Source: Pseudomonadota bacterium
GTDB lineage: Bacteria > Bdellovibrionota_B > Oligoflexia > Oligoflexales > CAIYRB01
Length of the DNA: 64,000 nt
Assembly: GCA_026390435.1 (NCBI GenBank)
Contig: JAPLFY010000040.1
Span: forward strand, 40,223-104,222
Direction: 5' to 3'
The notes under the pieces were generated by a model that searched no databases, was not told the DNA's origin, and saw only the letters and a list, made by a program, of their open reading frames with translations. Positions within the stretch are counted from its first letter, which is position 1; each line of letters opens with the position of its first letter. Of the stretch, positions 5,261 through 24,177 are shown piece after piece. Both the position numbers and the translations under genes were made by a program.

Positions 5261-5408
5261 CCCTGTGAGCGGTTCGTGCCGGATACAAGACTTTCCAATA
5301 TAGCTAACACAGCAGCCTTTGCAATGCGCATGTACTTCGGTACACTTCTTAAAAGTGGTGAAGGCTGTGGGGCAATCATAGCCTAGATTTTATCGCGGAG
5401 CAGACAAA

Positions 5409-6650
5409 ATGGCAGTTGATGTAAAAGTGCCGGCAGTTGGCGAATCCGTCCAAGAAGCAATGATCCATAAATGGCACAAAGCCACCGGCGAAGCTGTCAA
5501 ACGCGACGATGTGCTGATGGAACTGGAAACCGACAAAGCTACCGTCGAAATAACGGCGGAAACGGACGGCGTACTTGAGATCCTCAATAAGGAGGGCGAA
5601 ACCGTCTCCATAGGCCAAGTTGTGGCCCGCATCGATACAACAGGAACAGCAAGCAAAGGCGCACCTGTCAGTAAGGTAGCTGGTGCAACTCCCCCTGCTC
5701 CCGTGAAGTCCGCGAGCGCTGGCTCTGAACCGATCATGATGCCGGCCGCCCGCCGCCTTGTTGAAGAAAACCGACTCGATGCAGCCGCTGTCGCAGCAAC
5801 AGGCAAAGGTGGCCGCCTAACCAAGGGTGACGTACTCCAACACCTTGAGACAGGCACTAGCGCTGCAGCCAAACCAGCTGCTCCCGTAGCCAAGGGCCCG
5901 CCCCCAGCACCCGCAGTCAAATTGCCGCAACCAAAAGCAGCAAGCGGCACTCGCAGTGAACGGCGCGAGCCGATGTCGATGCTCAGGCGCCGAGTCGCTG
6001 AGCGCTTGATTCAGGCACAAAGTACAGCAGCGATCCTGACTACCTTCAACGAAGTTGACATGAAGGCTGTCATGGATCTGCGCAAGCAATACAAAGACTC
6101 CTTCAAAGACAAGTACGGTATCGGCTTAGGCTTTATGAGCTTTTTTGTCCGTGCTGCGCTTGAATCTCTGAAATCTTTTCCAGCCATCAACGGCTGGATT
6201 GAGGGCAATGAGATCGTCTACCACGACTATTACGATATCGGCGTCGCTGTGTCTGGTGACCGCGGCCTAGTCGTACCAGTGGTTCGTGATGCCGATAAGC
6301 TGAACATGGCCGAAATCGAACAGTCGATTGCTTACTATGCGGGAAAAGCTCGTGACGGCAAAATTACCGTCGATGATTTAAATGGCGGCACATTTACGAT
6401 TTCAAATGGTGGCACCTTTGGGTCTCTGCTGTCGACGCCGATCCTTAACCCACCACAAAGTGCGATTCTCGGGATGCATAAAATCGAGGAGCGCCCGATT
6501 GCCCTCAACGGGCAAGTGGTCATCAGACCAATGATGTACCTGGCACTGTCCTACGATCATCGCATTGTCGACGGCAAGGAAGCAGTGCAGTTCTTAGTCA
6601 AAATCAAAGAGATGGTTGAAGATCCGACCCGACTACTGCTGGGAGTCTAA
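5409..6650 (+). CDS. sucB: dihydrolipoyllysine-residue succinyltransferase (E2 of 2-oxoglutarate dehydrogenase)
   Basis: N-terminal lipoyl domain ([10 protein letters not shown]), an Ala/Pro linker, a peripheral subunit-binding domain and a C-terminal catalytic domain ([10 protein letters not shown]). Confidence 0.93.
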
Positions 6651-6655
6651 GAGAG

Positions 6656-8062
6656 ATGGCTGATCAAGAATTTGACGTAATCGTTATTGGCTCAGGTCCC
6701 GGTGGCTATGTGTGTGCGATCCGTGCTGCTCAGCTCGGACTCAAGACAGCTTGTGTCGAGTACGAACAATCTTTAGGTGGCACCTGCTTAAACGTTGGCT
6801 GCATCCCCAGCAAGGCGCTACTGCAGTCAAGCGAGCACTATGCACATACACTCCATGATTTGGCCAAACACGGCGTCAAAGCCGAAAAGGTTAGCCTAGA
6901 TCTCCCGACCATGCTGGGCCGGAAGGATGAGGTAGTAAAAAGCCTCACTCAGGGCATTGCTGGACTGTTCAAAAAAAACAAAGTTACTTGGCTCAAAGGG
7001 CGCGGTAGCTTTGTCGATGCCACGACCGTCAAAGTCACTGCAACGGACGGCTCCTCCACAAACTACAAGACCAAACATGCGGTGATAGCCACCGGTAGTA
7101 AGCCTATCGAAATTCCACCGGCGAAATTTGATCGCAACTTGATCATCAGTTCGACAGGTGCTCTAAAGCTGCCTGAAGTACCCAAGCATCTAATCGTCAT
7201 TGGGGGCGGAGTCATCGGCCTAGAAATGGGCAGCGTCTGGCTCCGCCTAGGGGCAAAAGTTACGGTGATCGAGGCTATGGGTACGATCCTTCCCGGCCTC
7301 GACAGCGATCTCACGAAGGGTCTGTTGAAGATCCTCCAACGAGAGGGGATGAATTTTCTCCTCGATACCAAATTAACGGCAACGTCGACGGGCAAAGATT
7401 CCGTAACTGCTACCTGCGTTAAGCCAGATGGGTCGACCTTAGAAATCAAAGGTGACCGTATGTTAGTGGCGGTAGGAAGACGCGCTAACACCGAAGGCCT
7501 GGGCCTAGAAAATCTTGGGATTAGTCTCGAAGCTGGCGGCAAAGTACCGGTAGATTCGCATCTTAGAACTCCGGTAGCAAATGTGTGGGGTATCGGAGAT
7601 GTGATTAAGGGCCCAATGCTGGCTCACAAAGCCGAAGATGAGGGAATCGCCGTTGCCGAGCGGATTGCTGGTCAGGCGGGACATGTGAATTATGAGGCAA
7701 TTCCTTGGGTTGTCTATACTTGGCCAGAACTTGCCAGCGTTGGGATCAGTGAAGACGCTGCCAAGCAGCAAGGGCTAAATGTTAAAGTTGGAAAATTTCC
7801 ATTTTCAGCGAATGGCCGGGCTAAAGCTCTTGGCAATACTGACGGATTCGTTAAGATTGTGGCCGACGCCAAGACTGATCGGATTGTCGGCGCGCACATC
7901 TTGGGGCCCAATGCCTCTGAGTTAATCGCTGAACTAGCCGTTGCTGTAGAGTTTGGAGCCAGCGCCGAGGATATTGCAAGGTCCACTCACGCCCACCCAA
8001 CTTTGGCGGAGTGCGTTAAAGAAGCGGCACTTGGTGTCGATAAACGAAGTATACATATATGA
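6656..8062 (+). CDS. lpdA: dihydrolipoyl dehydrogenase (E3)
   Basis: GSGPGGY FAD-binding site, the redox disulfide GGTCLNVGCIPSK, and the C-terminal HAHPTLAE dimerisation motif. Confidence 0.95.
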   Translation: MADQEFDVIVIGSGPGGYVCAIRAAQLGLKTACVEYEQSLGGTCLNVGCIPSKALLQSSEHYAHTLHDLAKHGVKAEKVSLDLPTMLGRKDEVVKSLTQGIAGLFKKNKVTWLKGRGSFVDATTVKVTATDGSSTNYKTKHAVIATGSKPIEIPPAKFDRNLIISSTGALKLPEVPKHLIVIGGGVIGLEMGSVWLRLGAKVTVIEAMGTILPGLDSDLTKGLLKILQREGMNFLLDTKLTATSTGKDSVTATCVKPDGSTLEIKGDRMLVAVGRRANTEGLGLENLGISLEAGGKVPVDSHLRTPVANVWGIGDVIKGPMLAHKAEDEGIAVAERIAGQAGHVNYEAIPWVVYTWPELASVGISEDAAKQQGLNVKVGKFPFSANGRAKALGNTDGFVKIVADAKTDRIVGAHILGPNASELIAELAVAVEFGASAEDIARSTHAHPTLAECVKEAALGVDKRSIHI

Positions 8063-8103
8063 CGCCTGTAGCTGGGGCGTCACCGGGTTAAAGGACCTCA
8101 GTT

Positions 8104-10908
8104 ATGACGCAACAAGACGCCTCAGGCTCACCTCGATTCAGTTTTGCCACTGGCAACAATGTCGCATATCTCGAGCAACTATATGCGGCATTTAAACAAG
8201 ATCCGGCAAGCGTCGATCCGAGCTGGCGACAGTTCTTCGAAGGCTACGAATTTGCCGCTTCAGGCGACATCCTTGGAAGCGGTGGCGGCGGCGAAAGTCC
8301 GTTCACGGCTAGGGTCGAAGCATTTATCAATGCGTACCGACGGCTCGGGCATTTATCGGCGCACCTGAGCCCACTTGCTCCAGCACCAGGTATCGCAAAG
8401 GACATGTTGCCTGAGTCACACGGCCTGAAGGACGTCGACCCACTGCAGATGTTTAATCCAGCGAACTTGCCCGAGAAGGCAATGAGCTTTAAGGACATCA
8501 ATGCGCTGCTTACTGCCACCTATTGCGGTCGAATCGGGGCTGATTATCGGGAAATCAACGATATCGGCATCGTCACATGGCTGCAGGAGCAGATGGAAAG
8601 CTGCCGCAATCAGCCGCCATTAAGCGCGGAAGTGAAACGCCGCATCCTAACCAAACTGACGCAGGCTGAGGGATTTGAACAATTCCTCGGCCGCCGCTAC
8701 ATCGGCACCAAGAGGTTCTCCTTAGAGGGCGCTGATGCGTTCATCCCACTACTCGATTTAATCACCGCCGATGGCGCCAAAGCCGGCGTGGAAGAATTTT
8801 GTTTAGGCATGTCCCACCGTGGGCGTCTAAATTGTCTCGTGAACTTCCTCGGCAAGAGCTACGAGCTCATGCTTAAAGATTTCGAGGGTACGGAGTACAA
8901 TGCTTACGACATCGATGGCGATGTGAAGTATCACATGGGCTTTGCTAGCGAAGTGGCCACGATGAATGGCGACCGGGTACGTCTATACCTGTCTCCGAAC
9001 CCGAGCCATCTAGAGATCGTCAATCCGGTCGTCGAAGGATTCGTTCGCGGCCGTCAACGCCTGCTGAACGATCACGATCGGCATAAAGTATTACCAATTT
9101 TGATGCATGGCGATGCCTCATTTATGGGACAAGGCACGGTCTCGGAGACACTAAACTTATCTGGTCTGGCTGGTTACTCGACTGGCGGCACTGTACATAT
9201 TGTGATCAATAATCAGATCGGCTTCACCACAGATCCGCAAGAAAGTCGCTCGACGACTTATAGCTCCGATATCGCCAAGATGGTGCGGGCACCCGTTCTA
9301 CACGTGAACGCTGATGACCCGGAAGCGGTGATCTGGTGCGGCCGCCTAGCACTGGCCTACCGGCAAAAATTCCACCGAGACATCATCATCGATCTCGTCG
9401 GTTACAGACGTCACGGCCACAATGAAGGTGACGAGCCTGCCTTCACACAACCGCTCATGTATAAGAAAATCGCAGCACATCCTACGGTTTTGAAAATCTA
9501 TGCGGACAAGTTGGTGGCTGAAGGCACGGTCGATGCAGCGACCGTTGAGAAAGAGGCGAGCAACTTCCGCGACCGCATGCAAGCAGCGTACGATGCCGTA
9601 CACGGCAAAAAATCGCCGCAAATCCCTGCTCCCGTGATTCCGGCGGGTCTACAAAAAACGCTAACTTATAAAAAGGCCAGCCGCGAAGAAATTGCCCAAC
9701 CCGTAGCAACCGGCGTTAAAGCTGCGACTCTTCGCGCAATCGTTTCTAAAATCACGAAGGTACCCGAAGGGTTCACACTCCATCCAAAGCTTGCGCGGCT
9801 GCTTGAAAATCGACAAAAAATGGTCGACGGACAAGGCGCTATTGATTGGGGGCTAGGCGAACTACTCGCTTTAGGATCTTTGGCACTTGAGGGACGTCAT
9901 GTTCGCTTTACAGGTCAAGATGCTCAGCGCGGTACCTTTACCAGTCGGCATGCTGTTTACACTGACTTTCAAACTAATGAACGGTACGAAGCACTAAACT
10001 ACCTAGACCCGAAGCAGGCCACCGTCCACGTCATCAACAGCCCTCTTTCAGAGCAAGGATGTCTTGGCTTTGAGTTTGGTTACTCGGTCGCGGATCCAGA
10101 AGCACTAGTAGCTTGGGAGGCACAGTTTGGCGACTTTGCAAACGGCGCCCAGATCATTATCGATCAGTTCTTATCTGCATCAGAAGCCAAGTGGAAGCAG
10201 ACCAGTAGCCTGATCATGCTATTGCCTCATGGGCATGAGGGCCAAGGTCCGGAGCATTCGAGTGCGCGCCCTGAACGATTCCTTCAACTTTGCGGTAATT
10301 TAAACATGCAGGTGGCTATCCCAACGACTCCGGCACAGCACTTTCACGCCTTGCGTCGTCAGCTTCACCGCGACTTCCGCAAGCCACTCGTGCTGATGAC
10401 TCCGAAAAGTTTGCTGCGCGAACCACTATGCGTATCGCCAGTCGCTGATTTTCAAGACGGTCGATTCCACGAAATTTTGGATGAAACTATTCCCGCGAAA
10501 GCAGATGCTGAACGCGTCATATTCTGCTCCGGCAAGATTTATTATGACCTCATCAAGGCCAGGACTGAACAGAGTCAATTTGCCACTGTGCCCGTGATCC
10601 GACTTGAACAACTCTATCCATTCCCATATGGCCAAATGGAAGCCCTACTCACCAGCTATCCAAAACTTTCAGAAATAATTTGGACGCAAGAAGAGCCACA
10701 AAATATGGGTGGCTGGAACTTCGTGCGAGGTCGTCTGCTTGAAGTCCTTAAGCCAAGCCAAAAGCTAAACTACGTGGGCCGCAAAAACAGTGGGACACCG
10801 GCTGAGGGCTCCGGCAAGGCACATGAGGCTGAGCAAAAGCGAATTATTCAAGATGCCCTAGGTCGGGCGGCCGGCACCCTCGCGCAGGTTGCCGCAACTG
10901 GCAAGTAG
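8104..10908 (+). CDS. sucA: 2-oxoglutarate dehydrogenase E1 component
   Basis: 934 aa, with typical SucA blocks (RFSLEG, MSHRGRLN, HGDASFMGQG, YRRHGHNEGDEP, LLPHGHEGQGPEHSSARPERFLQL). Confidence 0.95.
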   Translation: MTQQDASGSPRFSFATGNNVAYLEQLYAAFKQDPASVDPSWRQFFEGYEFAASGDILGSGGGGESPFTARVEAFINAYRRLGHLSAHLSPLAPAPGIAKDMLPESHGLKDVDPLQMFNPANLPEKAMSFKDINALLTATYCGRIGADYREINDIGIVTWLQEQMESCRNQPPLSAEVKRRILTKLTQAEGFEQFLGRRYIGTKRFSLEGADAFIPLLDLITADGAKAGVEEFCLGMSHRGRLNCLVNFLGKSYELMLKDFEGTEYNAYDIDGDVKYHMGFASEVATMNGDRVRLYLSPNPSHLEIVNPVVEGFVRGRQRLLNDHDRHKVLPILMHGDASFMGQGTVSETLNLSGLAGYSTGGTVHIVINNQIGFTTDPQESRSTTYSSDIAKMVRAPVLHVNADDPEAVIWCGRLALAYRQKFHRDIIIDLVGYRRHGHNEGDEPAFTQPLMYKKIAAHPTVLKIYADKLVAEGTVDAATVEKEASNFRDRMQAAYDAVHGKKSPQIPAPVIPAGLQKTLTYKKASREEIAQPVATGVKAATLRAIVSKITKVPEGFTLHPKLARLLENRQKMVDGQGAIDWGLGELLALGSLALEGRHVRFTGQDAQRGTFTSRHAVYTDFQTNERYEALNYLDPKQATVHVINSPLSEQGCLGFEFGYSVADPEALVAWEAQFGDFANGAQIIIDQFLSASEAKWKQTSSLIMLLPHGHEGQGPEHSSARPERFLQLCGNLNMQVAIPTTPAQHFHALRRQLHRDFRKPLVLMTPKSLLREPLCVSPVADFQDGRFHEILDETIPAKADAERVIFCSGKIYYDLIKARTEQSQFATVPVIRLEQLYPFPYGQMEALLTSYPKLSEIIWTQEEPQNMGGWNFVRGRLLEVLKPSQKLNYVGRKNSGTPAEGSGKAHEAEQKRIIQDALGRAAGTLAQVAATGK

Positions 10909-11040
10909 TATTGATGAAATCGCAGGGGGAACATGTTTCCAAGACTGGCTACCGGCAAGACTTGGAAAAACCCTAAAGAATAACAAAAAACCTACCGATA
11001 ACTTGCTCCGACACCTGTTGATCAGGCTAGGAGCATTATC

Positions 11041-17333: not shown

Positions 17334-17410
17334 TGGTAGCGGGGAGCGGATTTGAACCGCTGATCTTCGGGTTATGAGCCCGACGAGATACCAGACTTCT
17401 CCACCCCGCG
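17334..17410 (-). tRNA. initiator tRNA-fMet (CAU)
   Basis: The reverse complement CGCGGGGTGGAG...TCGGGCTCATAACCCGA...GGTTCAAATCC...CCCCGCTACCA folds as a cloverleaf. It has three G-C pairs in the anticodon stem and an unpaired 1:72 position (C:U), both hallmarks of bacterial initiator tRNA. The CCA end is encoded. Confidence 0.93.
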
Positions 17411-17602: not shown

Positions 17603-17692
17603 GGAGAGATGGCCGAGTGGCTGATGGCGCACGCTTGGAAAGCGTGTTTACCCTTAAAAGTAACGTGGGTTCGAATCCCACTCTCTCCGCCA
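17603..17692 (+). tRNA. tRNA-Ser (GGA)
   Basis: GGAGAGATGGCCGAGTGG..., anticodon loop TTGGAAA, long variable arm, GGTTCGAATCC T-loop, and acceptor stem GGAGAGA/TCTCTCC followed by GCCA. Confidence 0.93.
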
Positions 17693-17747
17693 CTACCTCC
17701 CAATAAAATCAATAAATTAAGCAGCATAACCATCGTCTGATACGGAC

Positions 17748-17766
17748 GCGGTAGACGATCTACCGC
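17748..17766. promoter_or_regulatory. inverted repeat upstream of the integrase remnant
   Basis: GCGGTAGA-cga-TCTACCGC forms 8-bp arms. It is nested in a second inverted repeat, ATCGTCT...AGACGAT, 27 nt upstream of the ATG at 17793. Confidence 0.35.
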
Positions 17767-17792
17767 AGTTTCACCGTAAAAGGAGGATAGCG

Positions 17793-18654
17793 ATGGGCTA
17801 TTACATTCGTGCGCTCACGGACAAAAAGAAGTTTCCGAAATGGAAAGTGCCGTTCATCTCGTACAAGAAGGCTGACGCTGAGAACCCGGCTGCCCCCAAA
17901 CCCAAGAAGGAATAGGGACGTACCGAGAGATCGCTGGCGTGCTCTTGGCTTTCTGACACGCATGAAGGTAAACGAAGCGCGAGCTCGGGCCAAGCAACTC
18001 AATAGTCTCTAGCTCATCAAGCGCCAAGAAAAGAAGCTTCGACAACTTCGCCTGGAGGAGCGTGAGACCGGCCGCAAGTACCGGGCCTTTCTTCCCGAGG
18101 AGTTCAAAGAGGAATTTGAGCGGCGATTTCTGCGGCGGCGCGACAGCCAGACCGACGCCAAACTTCGGCGTTTCACCCGCGCCCACACGCTTTGGCGGGC
18201 TGTCCAAAAACTGATCATCCATGTGAAGATCGAACCGTCCGAATGGTTTTGCAACCAGTACCAAATTTACGATTATCTCTACGAAAGTAATTTCAGCCTG
18301 TCATACAACAACAAGTTGCTCACCGTCCTCAACCTGTGGGGATTCTTTATCTGCAAGAAGCTGGATCAGCCGTTTCTACCGGTGGCGAAGCCACGCGGCT
18401 ACGAACGTCAACGATTGGTCGACAACTACTACCAAAACCGCGGCGACAAAAAGCAGGGGTCTGGTCCACTGTCACCGGAAGCTCTGATGACCGCGCAAGG
18501 GAAGATGAAGGTGAAGCAATTCAATTGGCTATTTATCTCGGTGTGGCTTGGTCTTCGTCCGCTTGAGATCGACAACTTACAGAGCGGCGACTTTTGGCGG
18601 GTGGAAACACTGCCGATCGGAACGCAAATCCTTTGGGTATTCCAAACCAAGCTG
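17793..18654 (+). pseudogene. tyrosine recombinase (phage-type integrase) pseudogene: frameshifted, nonsense-interrupted and 3'-truncated
   Basis: AGGAGG is followed by an ATG at 17793 that reads MGYYIRALTDKKKFPKWKVPFISYKK... to a TAG at 17913. The reading continues in the +1 frame (WRALGFLTRMKVNEARARAKQLNSL). An in-frame TAG sits at 18010-18012. The frame then runs LIKRQEKK...FISVWLGLRPLEIDNL (Arg box) and ends without the HxxR/Tyr catalytic half. Confidence 0.65.
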
Positions 18655-18858
18655 ATGCGCGGAAGCCAACTCACCTGCCAGGAGGTCCGCACCGTGCTTA
18701 AGGACTTAGGCTACGAACTGGTTCGCCAGCGCGGCAGCCATGAGCAATGGGTCAAAGACGGCAGAACCTTCACTCTGGCCGCTCATGGCAAAGATGCTCC
18801 GCATTATATCTTGGACGCTCTTCGAAAACTGAGCGAGGAACACCATGAAAAAAAGTAA
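18655..18858 (+). CDS. hicA: HicA mRNA-interferase toxin
   Basis: MRGSQLTCQEVRTVLKDLGYELVRQRGSHEQWVKDGRTFTLAAHGKDAPHYILDALRKL fits the HicA pattern (GSH..., about 67 aa). The ORF-track ORF 18223-18858 runs in frame from the integrase remnant into hicA. Confidence 0.8.
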   Translation: MRGSQLTCQEVRTVLKDLGYELVRQRGSHEQWVKDGRTFTLAAHGKDAPHYILDALRKLSEEHHEKK

Positions 18859-19222
18859 AACTAAGATCACCCGACATGCTGTCGAGGTCCTCGAGTATCA
18901 AGTAAATATAGCTTTTGATGTCCGCGACAAAATTCACGTCGCCAGAATACCAGAGCTGGAGAACTGCCATAGCCACGGCACTACGCCGGAAGAGGCTTTG
19001 GCAAACGCCAAAGAGGCTATCGAGTTATGGCTCGAGACCGCCAAAGAGCAGGGCCTCAATATCCCCGAGCCGGTCAGTCGGCGTCAATTTTCGGGAAAAT
19101 TCGTCCTTAGAACATCGCCAAACCTACATGCCACGTTAGCGCAGGAGGCCGCCCATCACGGCAAGAGCCTTAACGAGATGGCTGTCGAGTTGATCCAAAA
19201 GGGGCTCAAGGGAGTCGGGTAG
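18845..19222 (+). CDS. hicB: HicB antitoxin (HicB N-domain plus C-terminal RHH-like DNA-binding tail)
   Basis: It overlaps hicA by 14 nt. IPELENCHSHGTTPEEALANAKEAIELWLE is the HicB fold motif. The C-terminal FVLRTSPNLHATLAQEAAHHGKSLNEMAVELI is RHH-like. Confidence 0.8.
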   Translation: MKKSKTKITRHAVEVLEYQVNIAFDVRDKIHVARIPELENCHSHGTTPEEALANAKEAIELWLETAKEQGLNIPEPVSRRQFSGKFVLRTSPNLHATLAQEAAHHGKSLNEMAVELIQKGLKGVG

Positions 19223-19365
19223 CGCGTTTTGCTGACGCTTCGTCCTGACGATCATTCGATTACGAGGAAGATAACTTCGAGAGTCGAAGCGACGGCCACA
19301 AGGTGGCTCTTCGCTTGAATATAAATGACTTCGAGAGCAAAGATTTCGGCCGCGAGGGGTGATAG

Positions 19366-19944
19366 GTGTCTAAGATTGACAATCTGTGGCAAAAGTTTAA
19401 GGGCAACGGGAAAGTCTATAATTACACACAGAAGTGGATCTGGGTTGTTGAGACGACGACGAATCATCCAAAGGGTCCGGCGATTGCTCATAAATTGGCA
19501 CCGCGAACCAAGGCGCCAATAAAATTTGATATCGATGGTTTCAAAAGAGTCGATGGCAAGGCCATCGAGGGCCACTCCACTTGGTGGAAAATATGGGGAC
19601 ATTGCACTGCAGATCTGTATGACCATGGAAACGGCGTTCGCGTCGATGTTGTCGTAAAGTTCAAGGTTTCAGAAAATAAGTTTGGATCTGTCGTGTATGA
19701 CGATGCAACAGATTGGGGTGATCCAATCCGTCATATTACAAGAGTAGAAAAGGGAAGGAACGGCAGGATAGCCCGATTTTTTGTCGATGACTATGGTTGG
19801 ATTTCTAGAAAATGCGCCATAGAATTGGTTGCCAAGGCCAAGATCGACAACGCTGTTCTGGTGCAACCAAAGAACGGGGAACCTTATCTCCGTGCCTTGC
19901 CCGACCCTGAGACGGGGAACAACTTTCTCTCGATGGTGACTTAG
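19366..19944 (+). CDS. two-domain protein: unknown N-terminal domain plus a C-terminal DUF3892-like domain
   Basis: The C-terminus IRHITRVEKGRNGRIARFFVDDYGWISRKCAIELVAKAKIDNAVLVQPKNGEPYLRALPDPETGNNFLS matches, from memory, the DUF3892 pattern (I..I...W.s...AI..i..g...V......YLrT..D....NNLL.LP). The start is GTG, with GAGGGG upstream. Confidence 0.55.
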   Translation: MSKIDNLWQKFKGNGKVYNYTQKWIWVVETTTNHPKGPAIAHKLAPRTKAPIKFDIDGFKRVDGKAIEGHSTWWKIWGHCTADLYDHGNGVRVDVVVKFKVSENKFGSVVYDDATDWGDPIRHITRVEKGRNGRIARFFVDDYGWISRKCAIELVAKAKIDNAVLVQPKNGEPYLRALPDPETGNNFLSMVT

Positions 19945-19945
19945 C

Positions 19946-20311
19946 ATGAGGTATTTATTTCGCGCATTGCTCCTGTCTTCATGCGTCGGGATAGGGATTT
20001 GCGGCTACAATGCCTTGCGATTCCGCTATGGAGTCAGTGATTCTGTTGCGCGCACGCTGCTGGCGATTCTTGAAGATACGAGATGGGCCTCTGATTTTTC
20101 AGAGGAAAAATTTTCTGACGTAGTTGTGGGTATGACCAAGAATCAAGTTAGCATGCTACTGGGGAAGCCGTTGCGAGAGACTTGCACGGCCGGCTGCGAG
20201 TGGGTTTACACTTGGCAAGCCGATCCAACGGCGAGCTTTGATTGGCGATCTATTCATTTTGATGACTTGGGTCGTGTCGATTTGAAGCGGCGAGAATTTT
20301 TTATTGATTAG
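19946..20311 (+). CDS. BamE/SmpA_OmlA-like small lipoprotein
   Basis: The start lies 1 nt after the upstream stop. It has the signal/lipobox ALLLSSC and the motif GMTKNQVSMLLGKP...W.Y typical of SmpA/OmlA (BamE-like) domains. Confidence 0.55.
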   Translation: MRYLFRALLLSSCVGIGICGYNALRFRYGVSDSVARTLLAILEDTRWASDFSEEKFSDVVVGMTKNQVSMLLGKPLRETCTAGCEWVYTWQADPTASFDWRSIHFDDLGRVDLKRREFFID

Positions 20312-20619: not shown

Positions 20620-22812
20620 CTACTGCTGGCATGTGTAAATTTCGTCTCCCAGCGCTTTCGGACCGAGGTTGGTAATCGGCACATAAACGAGCACCCGATT
20701 GGCTCCAATCTGCCGGCCAGAAAACTCCAGCAAACCTGAGCCATCGGATTTGGGATGAGCAATCTCCGAAGGACTTTCCAAATTAACGAAGTCGACTTTG
20801 CGATTGTCTGCTAACAGGTCGGGAATCTGAATCGGACTGCCTGAAGTATTAACCAACACTAAAGCCTCAGCACTTGGATTTGCCGGATCAACGCGCGAAA
20901 ACGCCATCAAACCTGCTTGCTCCGTCGTCGACCACCTCCAGGAGATGCCGCCGCGGCGCAGCGCGGAACATGACTTCCTCGCCTTTAGAAAACGCCTGGC
21001 AGTCACATAGACGTCATGATCGCGCGCCAAATACGGGTCACTTTGCCAGTCCGACGGGGCTGCAGGCGCCAACGGCCCAATGTGGGCCAGCTGATTAATC
21101 TCTGAAATCGCACTACCCAGTCGGAACATGCCGCCGACAAACATATCCTGCCGGTAGTGAGCATCTGAGTTGGTACCAGGTGCTTGGCTACAAAATTGAT
21201 TCATCGCAGCTTGATCGATCGAGGAGTCGATGCTCCCGCCTACACACTGCCCATTGAATGCTTGCTCCAGACCGTAATAAATCACGGGTATTCCTGGCGC
21301 CACCGCGAGGTAAGATAAGCCCAATCTAGCCTTATCTTGCTGCTGCTCAGTAAGGCGTGCCCAGTCATGAATTTCGAGCACGGTCAAATTTAGTCGCGGA
21401 TCACCCTGGGCTACCAGATCCCGGTAGTAGGTGTCGGTAAGGAAGTAGTTCTCCAAGATACGACTAGATCTAACATTGGTCAGAACATCCCGCGAAATCC
21501 CTGAGTGCGCAAAATCAAATACACCGGACACACCGGGATAGGGTGAGTCAGGATTACTTTGTGCCGTTTCTAAAATGGATTTTCCGAGACGGCCGCTATT
21601 CTGGACTAAGTTTCTCCACGTAGCCGTATTTTGCGCCGAGTTCATCCGCCCTAAATGCTGAGAAATAGATAAAGAATCACCGGCAATTTCCGCTACGACA
21701 TAAAAGTGATTTTTTCCCAATTTGCGCGCGTAGTCTCTAATCTCCGTCGAAAAGTAAGCAGTAAAATCGCTGGTCGTGTGTTTCACCGCATCGAGTCTGA
21801 ATCCATCGACATCCGCAAATGCAATCCAGTACTCCATAATGTTGGTAAAGATTCGTTGGAAATCCGTATTGCGAGTGTCGTAGTCGAGCATCTCAGACGT
21901 AAAGTCACCGAAGACTGTCGTTGCCGCTGCTCCGGCCATTTCTGCATGCGAATTTTCTCCGCAGCGATTGAAGAAGTACTTAAGCTTTAACGGGGGGAAA
22001 AATGACTCTGAGAATGCAAGGTCGACCTGATTTGGCGAAAACGTGGGGGAACCGGATGCATCCGCTCGCGCTAGATCATCGGCACAAGCCGTGTGTTCTG
22101 CGGGCGTATGTTTCCGAACGTACTTTGTAGCGGGATCACACAGGTGATTGACAACGACATCAAGTATGACACGAATTCCCTTGGCGTGAGCCTGACGCAC
22201 TAGTTCCGCTAGATCCTCAGCACTGCCGAAGTTAGGGTCGATTTTAGTTAAATCGGAAACGCAATAGCCGTGATAACTGCCATTGGAATTCTCAAAAATC
22301 GGCGTGACCCAGATTGCTGAAATCCCAAGATCGGCCAGATAATCGAGACGCTTGGTGATTCCCTTTAAGTCGCCACCATGATGATAGGCTTCGATGCCGC
22401 GATTACGACTCAAGCCTTGGTTACGCTGCGCCTCTGAAATTAGACTAAAATTATTACTGCTATCCCCGTCATTAAACCTATCGATCATGATCTCGTAGAT
22501 CGTCTCATCACCCCAAAAATTTGGTGATGGATATCTTGGCTGTCCGTTCTGAGTGAAGGCCAATTCAGCCTCGTGATTTCTTGCCGTCGACCAAGACATC
22601 ACGCTATCGACGCCGACTCGGCTAACATCGGGTAGGGCGGCAACTGCAGAGCCAGCACCAGTCACTCGGCTATCGCGATGCCCTAGCAAAGGAACGTTGG
22701 CTCGGCAATCACATAGGACACCGACTACGCTGAACGCACCAATTATGAGGGTCAACTTACGCAAGAATAGGCAGCTGGTCATAGTCATTCCTAGGCCATT
22801 ATTGGACGTCAT
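20620..22812 (-). CDS. secreted GH13-family alpha-amylase-like glycoside hydrolase (large form)
   Basis: GH13 conserved regions are present: [22 protein letters not shown] and a later HD-type region. An N-terminal hydrophobic signal is present. The start codon is uncertain. Confidence 0.8.
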
Positions 22813-22815
22813 CGA

Positions 22816-24177
22816 TCACTTGCAAGATATCAACGAGGATTTCACGAGAAAAGCAGCTGACCTCGGGCCAACGACAAACCCACCACGCAATTGCTGCTGG
22901 CCCGCACCCCATTCGAGGACTGAAATAGCGCCGTTACTAGCCCTGCCGATCTCTACTTTGAGCTTGGTATCCATATCGACATAACACCCCGGATCAAGCC
23001 CAGGCATATAAGCAAGAGGCACATCGACACTGTTGTTCGCAGAATTTAAGATCACCAAACCAGATTTGTTGCGCTCAATAAATAACATCGTCCGCGCATC
23101 GCACTTGGATGGGCAAACCTCATCTGCATTGCGGACATAAACACCAGTACCAGCAAACTTATTATGGAACCTTACGGCGGTTTCGACAAGAGGCTCCCTG
23201 TAATCGTCACGATAAACAAAGCCAGTCCCTACGCCACGCGCCAAGACGAATGCCGAAGCCAAAAGGGAGTCGCGGAGATCGCCGAAGTTATAGAAGTTGG
23301 AGTCCATCGCCGTATCGTGGTTGCGAGCGAACACAACTTTAGACGCGCCCGGGAGCTCGCCTCGGGAGCCGACGGGATACATGAGACTACGAAGATCACC
23401 CCGGGGGGAAAAGGCAGTGATCATGGTGGAAAGCAAATTGAAATCGGTGACAGGCATATAGTCAGAGTAGAGTGCCGCCTCCTCAATAGAATTAGCAATC
23501 ACCTCTCCGTATGAGTACGTGCTTTTCGGCACAGACCCGAGTATGTCCCCAAAATATTCTGGCTCAATATGTTTAGCTGCATCAAAGCGAAAGCCATCGG
23601 CACCGAGGTCAAGAAGTTTAGCTAAGTACTTTTTCTGCTCGTTTCGTACATAAGTCGACCCAGTATCCAAATCGGGTAGCCCCGAATCCCCGGAGCCACT
23701 GCATAGCCAAAAATTTGTGACCTGGTAGCGGTTATTAAAGTCCTTAATGCAGGAGCGGGCCGCTGCAACATGAAAGTCGCACGCAGAGAACTGCGGGAAA
23801 TCGAGGTTTGGGAAGCCAGCCAAACCCGCATTCGCCATGTGATTGAAGACCACATCAACGATCACCTTCAATCCTTTGGCATGGGCTTCCTGGATCAAAT
23901 GAAGCAGGTCCCCCTCGTTTCCCAGAGGACTGTCGATCACTCTTAGGTCCAGTGGCTGATACCTGGCCCACCACTGGTTAAAATTTATACTCTTTTGCGG
24001 TGGGGACACTTGAATGTGGGAGTAGCCAATGGCAGCTAACTCATCCAACTTTGTCTCGATGTCTACGAAGTGTTCGTTGAACGCTTGGTAGATGACGTCT
24101 GCATTGGCAGAAGGCGCAAAAACTAATGATAGACTGCTCAAGAAAAAGCTTAGGTAGACCACACTTATTCGCCGCAT
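22816..24177 (-). CDS. secreted alpha-amylase (GH13)
   Basis: Signal peptide (VYLSFFLSSLSLVFAPSANA) plus GH13 regions I-IV: DVVFNHM, GFRFDAAKHI, YGEV, FARNHD. Confidence 0.85.
   Translation of the reverse strand: MRRISVVYLSFFLSSLSLVFAPSANADVIYQAFNEHFVDIETKLDELAAIGYSHIQVSPPQKSINFNQWWARYQPLDLRVIDSPLGNEGDLLHLIQEAHAKGLKVIVDVVFNHMANAGLAGFPNLDFPQFSACDFHVAAARSCIKDFNNRYQVTNFWLCSGSGDSGLPDLDTGSTYVRNEQKKYLAKLLDLGADGFRFDAAKHIEPEYFGDILGSVPKSTYSYGEVIANSIEEAALYSDYMPVTDFNLLSTMITAFSPRGDLRSLMYPVGSRGELPGASKVVFARNHDTAMDSNFYNFGDLRDSLLASAFVLARGVGTGFVYRDDYREPLVETAVRFHNKFAGTGVYVRNADEVCPSKCDARTMLFIERNKSGLVILNSANNSVDVPLAYMPGLDPGCYVDMDTKLKVEIGRASNGAISVLEWGAGQQQLRGGFVVGPRSAAFLVKSSLISCK

Follow-up and report, generated by a model that had tools for sequence, protein, structure and literature searches.

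What a pair of small, tightly joined genes lying directly behind a toxin-antitoxin (TA) operon might do together is the question raised by positions 19366 to 20311 of a 64,000-nucleotide stretch of contig JAPLFY010000040.1 (hereafter, the window) from a Pseudomonadota bacterium (assembly GCA_026390435.1). Both genes lie on the plus strand. Gene A (19366-19944) is an open reading frame (ORF) of 192 amino acids with a GTG start, about 6 nt 5' of which stands a Shine-Dalgarno-like box, GAGGGG, while gene B (19946-20311) is an ORF of 121 amino acids with an ATG start; the junction reads TAG-C-ATG, with 1 nt between the stop of A and the start of B. A sequence-only reading of the window had given these positions, lengths and the 1-nt junction, and had described A as ending in a DUF3892 domain, B as carrying a BamE-like (SmpA/OmlA) domain, the two genes as tightly coupled, and the neighbour as a TA system. 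All of this is borne out by the ORF list and the sequence, by Pfam matches above the cutoff for both domains, by the junction itself, and by HicA and HicB matches for the two ORFs that come just before A. We tentatively regard A as an effector and B as its immunity protein, together forming a toxin-immunity-type module, a view that comes close to an even chance and draws indirect support from the replacement of the partner gene, the asymmetric decay of A, the occurrence of the N-terminal domain of A in a toxin-tip position, and published predictions.

The existence of homologues for both genes, together with low ratios of nonsynonymous to synonymous substitution (dN/dS), indicates that A and B are not chance ORFs. 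In comparisons with homologous loci from other genomes (numbered from L001 onwards), dN/dS was 0.20 for gene A against L001 and 0.15 for gene B against L017, and purifying selection acts on both genes. Against L017, the synonymous sites of gene A are saturated (proportion of nonsynonymous differences, pN, 0.06), and the dN of B (0.173) exceeds that of A (0.065), showing that B changes faster. Close homologues are very rare, amounting to nine for A and four for B among 5.8 billion clustered proteins. The genome matches come from Bdellovibrionales, Bdellovibrionota, Oligoflexales and unclassified 'Deltaproteobacteria' metagenome-assembled genomes (MAGs), a kind to which the organism of the window probably belongs as well, and searches of phage, plasmid and IMG/VR collections returned no relatives.

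The sequence-only reading had staked its proposal on the two genes being conserved together elsewhere, and at all informative loci A does have B, or a membrane protein like B, as its neighbour. The pair is kept together at at least 15 loci, with the identity of A falling to 34%. A gene for A followed by one for B or a B-like partner was found at L018, at L030, on contig ERZ27296333 and, with the identities of A and B to those of the window in brackets, at L001 (96% and 94%), L017 (87% and 73%), L010 (49% and 42%), L012 (47% and 38%, the partner being made of three BamE-like repeats), L013 (42% and 42%), L002-4 (41% and 40%), L031 (41% and 46%), L028 (39% and 41%), L014 (37% and 44%) and L015 (34% and 37%). 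The last of these has the arrangement twice: a lone B-like gene is followed at 7835-11010, the interval that includes it, by two A-B pairs placed head to tail in a tandem duplication. At the 10 loci whose junctions were compared, A and B overlap by 4 nt in six and are separated by 1-23 nt in the rest, and their pairwise divergences are correlated (r = 0.81 over 45 comparisons that are not independent of one another).

The partner of A is not the same protein everywhere. At L005 and L009 it is a multi-transmembrane protein of 202 amino acids with a BamE-like domain at its end, and at L011 (two copies) and L032/33 it has 3 to 5 transmembrane helices and is devoid of a BamE-like domain. A C-terminus of the form aromatic-aromatic-aliphatic-Asp is nevertheless common to all partner types: the partners consisting of transmembrane helices end in WFLD and WFYD, B itself ends in FFID, and FFID or FYID-like endings occur in nearly all of the 14 B homologues aligned. 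Replacement of a partner by a non-homologous protein is typical of immunity genes.

Decay at these loci falls on A. At five independent loci A is broken beside an intact partner: a gene for an IS200/IS605-type TnpB (OrfB_IS605, Cas12f-like TNB; L018, 561-1706) lies inside A and splits it near residue 125, with B intact; A is frameshifted at L030 and in the second copy at L011; it is truncated to about 88 residues at L032/33; and on contig ERZ27296333 it is split into ORFs of 97 and 85 amino acids next to an intact B of 121 amino acids. The reverse, a dead partner beside an intact A, was not clearly seen at any of the loci examined.

The candidate effector portion of A is its N-terminal domain (residues 1-120, encoded at 19366-19725, plus strand), for which the sequence-only reading had recognised no motif. 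That statement holds, given that no Pfam, NCBIfam or PDB sequence match was obtained; no Pfam or NCBIfam family falls on the domain even in its stand-alone members, and a profile search found no sequence relative in the PDB. An AlphaFold2 (AF2) model of this region, built from 47 diverse sequences, predicts an all-beta sandwich of nine strands with a predicted local distance difference test score (pLDDT) of 92.5 and a predicted template modelling score (pTM) of 0.84, all five models having a pLDDT above 91. Foldseek comparison of the model with the PDB gave nothing better than E 0.13 and a TM-score of 0.47. The weak top neighbours in the PDB were IglE (TM-score 0.41-0.47), domain 4 of cholesterol-dependent cytolysins (CDC) and transthyretin, which are read as generic sandwiches. 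A specific relationship to CDC domain 4 was considered and set aside, its matches being recurrent but weak (E 0.1-1, TM-score about 0.3, root-mean-square deviation 7-10 Å). Nor did a Colicin-M-like or lipocone identity find support, with no Pfam or PDB sequence match and no such structure among the 50 best Foldseek PDB matches; the motif DxYDx5HR is absent from the domain. Among predicted viral structures (BFVD), the best neighbours are small uncharacterised Pandoravirus proteins (E about 1e-3, TM-score 0.4-0.47), which are the only near-significant structural matches.

Across all copies of the domain, in the numbering of A, the positions conserved best are G15, N19, S21, W26, V27, E29, A41, H42, L44, P51, D55, D57, G58, H70, W73, W74, K75, F106, G107, W117 and G118. 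The compact polar set among them (N19, E29, H42, D55, D57, H70 and K75), taken with the tryptophans, is compatible with a catalytic or ligand-binding site.

The domain is also a portable module, with no counterpart in Pfam or among the solved structures that were searched. An exhaustive profile search of 1.84 billion cluster representatives returned 108 proteins at E <=0.001, and 71 full-length copies served to define its architectures. The domain is fused to DUF3892, as in A, in 23 copies and stands alone (about 105-125 amino acids) in 14; it follows a signal peptide, transmembrane helix or lipobox in eight, lies at the extreme C-terminus of longer proteins in another eight, is followed by other C-terminal regions in 13, and has extensions at both ends in four. 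A member of the last class, P0075, contains DUF4157/eCIS_core (E 4.8e-31) and carries the domain near its C-terminus (residues 222-321 of 375); DUF4157 is an N-terminal module of toxin tips in published lipocone data (PMC12419801). In the leucine-rich repeat protein P0054 (885 amino acids), the beta-sandwich forms the last 105 residues; a MACPF-like region guessed by eye in its N-terminal 400 or so residues was dropped, being without Pfam or PDB support. One of the other C-terminal regions beyond the domain gives a weak CHAP match under the Pfam cutoff.

A pair of cysteines (for example, IDCLTC) is usual in the exported or stand-alone copies of the domain, and the copies fused to DUF3892 have Val or Lys at these positions, which fits a cytoplasmic A. 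Hydropathy analysis found no signal peptide or hydrophobic segment in A, so the protein should be cytoplasmic; Pfam found no trafficking domain, and A opens directly with the beta-sandwich. In two loci, stand-alone genes for the domain (L022, 1385-1885; L023, 3374-3913) encode the cysteine pair, are without a signal peptide, and adjoin a gene for a small protein with a Tat-like N-terminus (TRRDAVK or TRREAV), an arrangement that raises the idea of co-export by hitchhiking.

The remainder of A (residues 123-192, encoded at 19732-19944 on the plus strand) consists of DUF3892 and a conserved tail before the stop. The Pfam match to PF13031 covers residues 123-188 (E 2.7e-6, 28.2 bits against a cutoff of 22.3), and the same family is annotated on homologues of A in precomputed data. 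In the AlphaFold model of full-length A, which was built from 10 sequences and has a pLDDT of 81.5, the C-terminal part comprises three strands, a helix and two strands, with DSSP placing strands at 124-129, 135-140 and 144-147 and the helix at 148-156. The model thereby agrees with the published description of the DUF3892 fold as a three-stranded meander plus helix, similar to double-stranded RNA-binding domains and ribosome hibernation factors; a role as a sensor of RNA or ribosomes has been proposed for it (PMC12419801). DUF3892 has been tied to defence by Burroughs & Aravind (2020), and is found in operons under CapH/CapP-type regulators.

Fusions of DUF3892 to another small domain provide the closest published parallel to A. 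Min-Wnt-DUF3892 proteins, found at 17 loci with no conserved downstream gene, are predicted intracellular antiviral proteins (eLife 2025, PMC12419801). Like A, they are small cytoplasmic proteins without a secretion signal, in which an N-terminal effector-type domain of about 110-120 amino acids precedes a C-terminal DUF3892, and the family has a member in Bacteriovorax, of the same broad predatory lineage as A. They differ from A in two respects: the N-terminal domain of A is modelled as an all-beta sandwich, unlike the five-helix Min-Wnt/lipocone fold, and A always occurs with a membrane partner.

The product of gene B opens with a predicted transmembrane helix (residues 4-24), after which come a juxtamembrane helix and, at about residues 47-121, a BamE/BLIP-like domain. 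Pfam places BamE (PF04355) at residues 53-95 (E 5.6e-7, 29.7 bits against a cutoff of 23.2) and also matches BLIP weakly, and a profile of B and its relatives matched BLIP (E 4e-5) and BamE chains (about E 7e-4) in the PDB, so that a core domain appears to be shared with both. Since BLIP is a protein inhibitor of enzymes, the match to it besides BamE makes B look like a binder. Beyond the shared core, B departs from BamE in giving no orthologue score, in lacking a conserved lipobox, and in being tied to A on an islet rather than placed in the core genome; in the NCBIfam orthologue test (NF008585) it scores 17.3 bits against an equivalog cutoff of 93, which makes its domain BamE-like without making the protein BamE.

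These data bear on the possibility that the pair takes no part in conflict at all, A serving in the cytoplasm as an RNA- or ribosome-associated factor and B serving in the periplasm as a BamE-like factor for assembly or binding, co-expressed with A and not antagonistic to it. BamE-family proteins are normally envelope assembly factors, and the pair matches no defence model, both of which would suit such a role. The shortfall of B against the cutoff for true BamE speaks against it, as do an extremely patchy distribution, the tandem duplication at L015, the repeated inactivation of A, and a location amid TA genes and mobile-element debris, and we regard this explanation as very unlikely.

As to the anchoring of B, the sequence-only reading had called it a lipoprotein on account of a lipobox. 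The string LSSC is present at residues 10-13, but it falls in the middle of the hydrophobic segment 4-24, which is the sole one in B; of 14 homologues, 3 have anything like a lipobox, and several have no cysteine there. The string itself stands, while the lipoprotein assignment was rejected on this want of conservation and on its position within the transmembrane segment, and the N-terminus is probably a signal anchor that holds the protein in the membrane through its helix. The BamE-like domain is most likely periplasmic, judging from three features: a loop in the L009 partner, a cysteine pair, and family precedent. In the L009 partner, the loop before the helix aligned with that of B has four Lys/Arg and is free of acidic residues, which would put the BamE-like domain outside the cytoplasm; the cysteine pair (Cys80/Cys84 in B) is found in 11 of 14 homologues with a spacing of 1-5 residues. 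The charges flanking the helix of B itself are ambiguous as to topology.

This predicted topology matters for a second alternative, in the style of abortive infection, in which A would be a sensor, through DUF3892 and/or the sandwich, that activates B or the multi-transmembrane partners, which would then damage the membrane or block an envelope process. Small transmembrane effectors are common in defence systems, every partner type is a membrane protein bearing the common C-terminal motif, and loss of A with B retained would also be tolerated under this scheme, for which the proposal of DUF3892 as a sensor domain (PMC12419801) is a further point. Yet the cytoplasmic tail of B would be only about 3-6 residues long and offer little for a cytoplasmic A to contact, a single helix with a BamE/BLIP-like domain is no recognised toxic architecture, the triple-repeat partner at L012 resembles a binder such as BLIP, and in the DUF4157 protein the beta-sandwich stands where a toxin tip would. 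Such an arrangement seems to us unlikely.

The reading of B as a protector has published precedent as well. For Min-Wnt and other toxins directed at lipid head groups, immunity is predicted to come from membrane-anchored BamE-like proteins (444 loci) and from 4-transmembrane proteins (11 loci), termed Imm-BamE and Imm-4TM (PMC12419801). As in the published description, B is a fast-evolving, membrane-anchored BamE-like protein whose gene immediately follows that of the candidate effector, and in some loci a small multi-transmembrane protein takes its place. The toxins served by Imm-BamE and Imm-4TM are polymorphic toxins of the Min-Wnt, CapCone and Colicin-M-like kinds, described as secreted or delivered lipocone domains with trafficking modules, whereas A has no such modules and its N-terminal domain is predicted to be all-beta. 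The position of a putative immunity gene directly downstream (from a 4-nt overlap to a 23-nt gap at 10 loci) is that seen in polymorphic toxins; the N-terminal secretion or trafficking module of such toxins is missing from A, and only the distant relative P0075 has DUF4157. Type II TA systems such as HicAB resemble A-B in being mobile, patchily distributed pairs of small genes with coupled translation, in which the putative toxin is sometimes decayed, but B has a transmembrane helix and a BamE/BLIP-like domain in place of a helix-turn-helix or ribbon-helix-helix domain, and no autoregulation is evident. The A-B module is best described as a variant of a computationally predicted conflict module that joins the themes of DUF3892 effectors and BamE-like immunity and has a new beta-sandwich domain in the effector position.

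A variant of this model that differs in deployment holds that A is exported by a route for which no signal peptide is needed and that the envelope of prey or competitors is what it attacks, while B guards the periplasm of the producer. It would place the periplasmic domain of B in the right compartment, and it accords with the confinement of the family to Bdellovibrionota/Oligoflexia-type MAGs, with the presence of the N-terminal domain elsewhere in secreted proteins, lipoproteins and a DUF4157 protein, and with the resemblance of the partners beside a broken A to orphan immunity genes. Against it stand the absence of a secretion signal or known trafficking domain from A, the absence of secretion-system genes nearby in any locus, the want of the cysteine pair of exported copies in those fused to DUF3892, and the description of DUF3892 fusions as intracellular (PMC12419801). 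Export of this kind is, in our estimation, rather improbable.

Returning to A as an effector countered by B, several points weigh against it. The toxicity of A, its neutralisation by B and a target in the envelope are all matters that we infer. No match at E up to 1 was found in PADLOC-DB v2 for A, B, the partners consisting of transmembrane helices or the stand-alone N-terminal domain, and PHROGs gave no defence link for A or B, with weak matches of unknown function for B only. If breaks scale with gene length, all five would fall in A with P about 0.09, and the asymmetric decay is thus suggestive, not significant. Two ambiguous reverse cases exist: the B of the first pair at L015 has lost its last 28 or so residues, in an array with other B copies, and the partner at L005 is split, with its B-like half intact. 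No BamE-like gene adjoins the stand-alone genes for the N-terminal domain at L024, L025 and L026. The fold is not diagnostic, beta-sandwiches serving more often for binding than for catalysis. The weakest point is a mismatch of compartments between a cytoplasmic A and a periplasmic domain of B, across which direct binding of the two is difficult to envisage without export of A or an action through the membrane.

If A is nonetheless the effector and B the protector, A-B would constitute a two-gene conflict module carried as cargo with type II TA pairs on small decaying islets of Bdellovibrionota-like bacteria. The beta-sandwich of A would be a portable tip that acts on or binds something at the envelope or inner membrane, and DUF3892 would be its regulatory handle. 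B would be held by one helix in the inner membrane with its BamE/BLIP-like binding domain in the periplasm, and translational coupling would allow it to be made in a fixed ratio with A, which might be deployed inside its own cell, in the manner of abortive infection, or be delivered to other cells. The mismatch of compartments would be resolved if A is exported, if it acts across or within the membrane, or if B shields the target instead of binding A. By analogy, the target of A is probably in the envelope, since both types of partner are membrane or periplasmic proteins and match those predicted for toxins of lipid-linked precursors. A bolder and, to our mind, doubtful proposal is that the N-terminal domain is a new effector domain, catalytic or ligand-binding and built on the conserved polar set, which could be directed at a lipid-linked intermediate of the envelope or a membrane component and would be gated by an RNA- or ribosome-sensing DUF3892, with B as the periplasmic protector; the whole would be an abortive-infection or addiction module, maybe switched by the TA operon, and in other phyla secreted or eCIS (extracellular contractile injection system) proteins would use this domain as their toxin tip.

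Should A and B prove to be effector and protector, a domain family of 108 clusters among 1.84 billion representatives would be added to the bacterial conflict toolkit, and the predictions that DUF3892 marks intracellular effectors and that BamE-like proteins confer immunity would be extended beyond lipocone toxins. The BamE-like and multi-transmembrane partners would then point to an envelope target, as they do for toxins of lipid-linked cell-wall precursors. The pair is in any case a rare, lineage-restricted two-gene system with a new domain family, and its recurrence directly after unrelated TA operons may reflect a shared insertion niche or a functional link.

In the window, the TA genes upstream of A-B form a complete HicAB module, in which HicA and HicB profiles fall on adjacent co-oriented genes. 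The hicA toxin gene (18655-18858, plus strand) matches HicA_toxin (E 3.8e-10, Pfam) and the hicB antitoxin gene (18845-19222, plus strand) matches HicB (E 2.1e-13) and HicB_lk_antitox (E 2.6e-9). A mechanically called ORF at 18223-18858 (211 amino acids) places 144 additional residues in frame with HicA, and the true start of hicA is likely the ATG at 18655. Similarity to L001, where HicA is called at 72 amino acids, begins at 18644, which suggests that hicAB-A-B became attached to an older gene or interrupted it. The 143-nt spacer between hicB and A (19223-19365, plus strand), as examined by repeat search and by inspection of the sequence, contains a 13-nt direct repeat, AT[AG]ACTTCGAGAG, at 19271 and 19325, 54 nt apart, the first copy being part of a short palindrome, CTTCGAGAGTCGAAG; these elements may act as an operator or hairpin. 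Promoter and terminator scans gave nothing above shuffled background, and no consensus promoter was found in the spacer.

At other loci, too, the pair usually comes immediately after type II TA genes read in the same direction, which belong to unrelated families. HicAB precedes it in the window and in L001, HicB, itself preceded by a 57-amino-acid ORF without a Pfam match, in L032/33, AbiEi-like and AbiEii genes in L002, DUF4160 and DUF2442 in L017, and an MNT-like nucleotidyltransferase in L028. In L013, it follows an ORF of 113 amino acids and a gene for an HVO_A0114 helix-turn-helix protein, with a 4-nt overlap with A, and on contig ERZ27296333 a Gp49/HigB-like gene and two uncharacterised ORFs come before A. 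L011 has BrnT/BrnA and Gp49-antidote pairs within 2 kb, and L015 has a BrnA-like gene.

A tRNA-Ser(gga) gene (17603-17692, plus strand; ARAGORN and Rfam) borders the islet, which starts immediately 3' of it. At this left edge, the tRNA-Ser gene is divergent from a tRNA-Met gene (17334-17410, minus strand) about 190 nt away. A tRNA-Ser gene 88% identical to that of the window lies about 1.6 kb from the tandem A-B pairs of L015, in an Oligoflexales MAG. Between the tRNA and hicA (17693-18654, plus strand), the ORF list shows broken ORFs, the last of them in frame with hicA; this interval gave no Pfam match (E up to 10), no PDB match with phmmer and no similarity to the fetched loci with tblastx. 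An integrase remnant was considered here from a by-eye likeness to the Arg box of tyrosine recombinases, and was left unverified in view of the lack of profile, PDB or tblastx support.

The hicA-hicB-A-B block shares 91% DNA identity with L001 from 18644 onward, with differing sequence upstream, and A-B alone shares 77.5% DNA identity with L017, where a different TA pair precedes it. The presence of the same block in a different context in L001, and of A-B behind another TA pair in L017, supports movement of the block. The sequence-only reading had spoken of a mobile islet, and the adjacency to a tRNA and the altered context in L001 give that description indirect support, although no profile-confirmed integrase is present in 17693-18654. 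An integron cassette was considered and rejected, as the window and L017 cease to be homologous where the genes end, and no flanking repeats are conserved.

Insertion sequence (IS) elements, group II intron reverse transcriptases and an integrase fragment occur near the pair in homologous loci. Three unrelated loci (L012, 1791-3122; L031, 218-1459; L017, 570-1346) have genes or fragments for group II intron-type reverse transcriptases in the 2 kb upstream of A-B, and beside the block in L001 an ORF of 72 amino acids (5335-5553, minus strand) has a likeness, seen by eye only, to the helix-turn-helix of IS21-type transposases. Immediately after the islet in the window, two genes of the alpha-amylase family (730 and 453 amino acids) stand back to back on the minus strand at 20620-24177, and in L001 a 51%-identical amylase flanks the hicAB-A-B block from the other side, its relative orientation being reversed.

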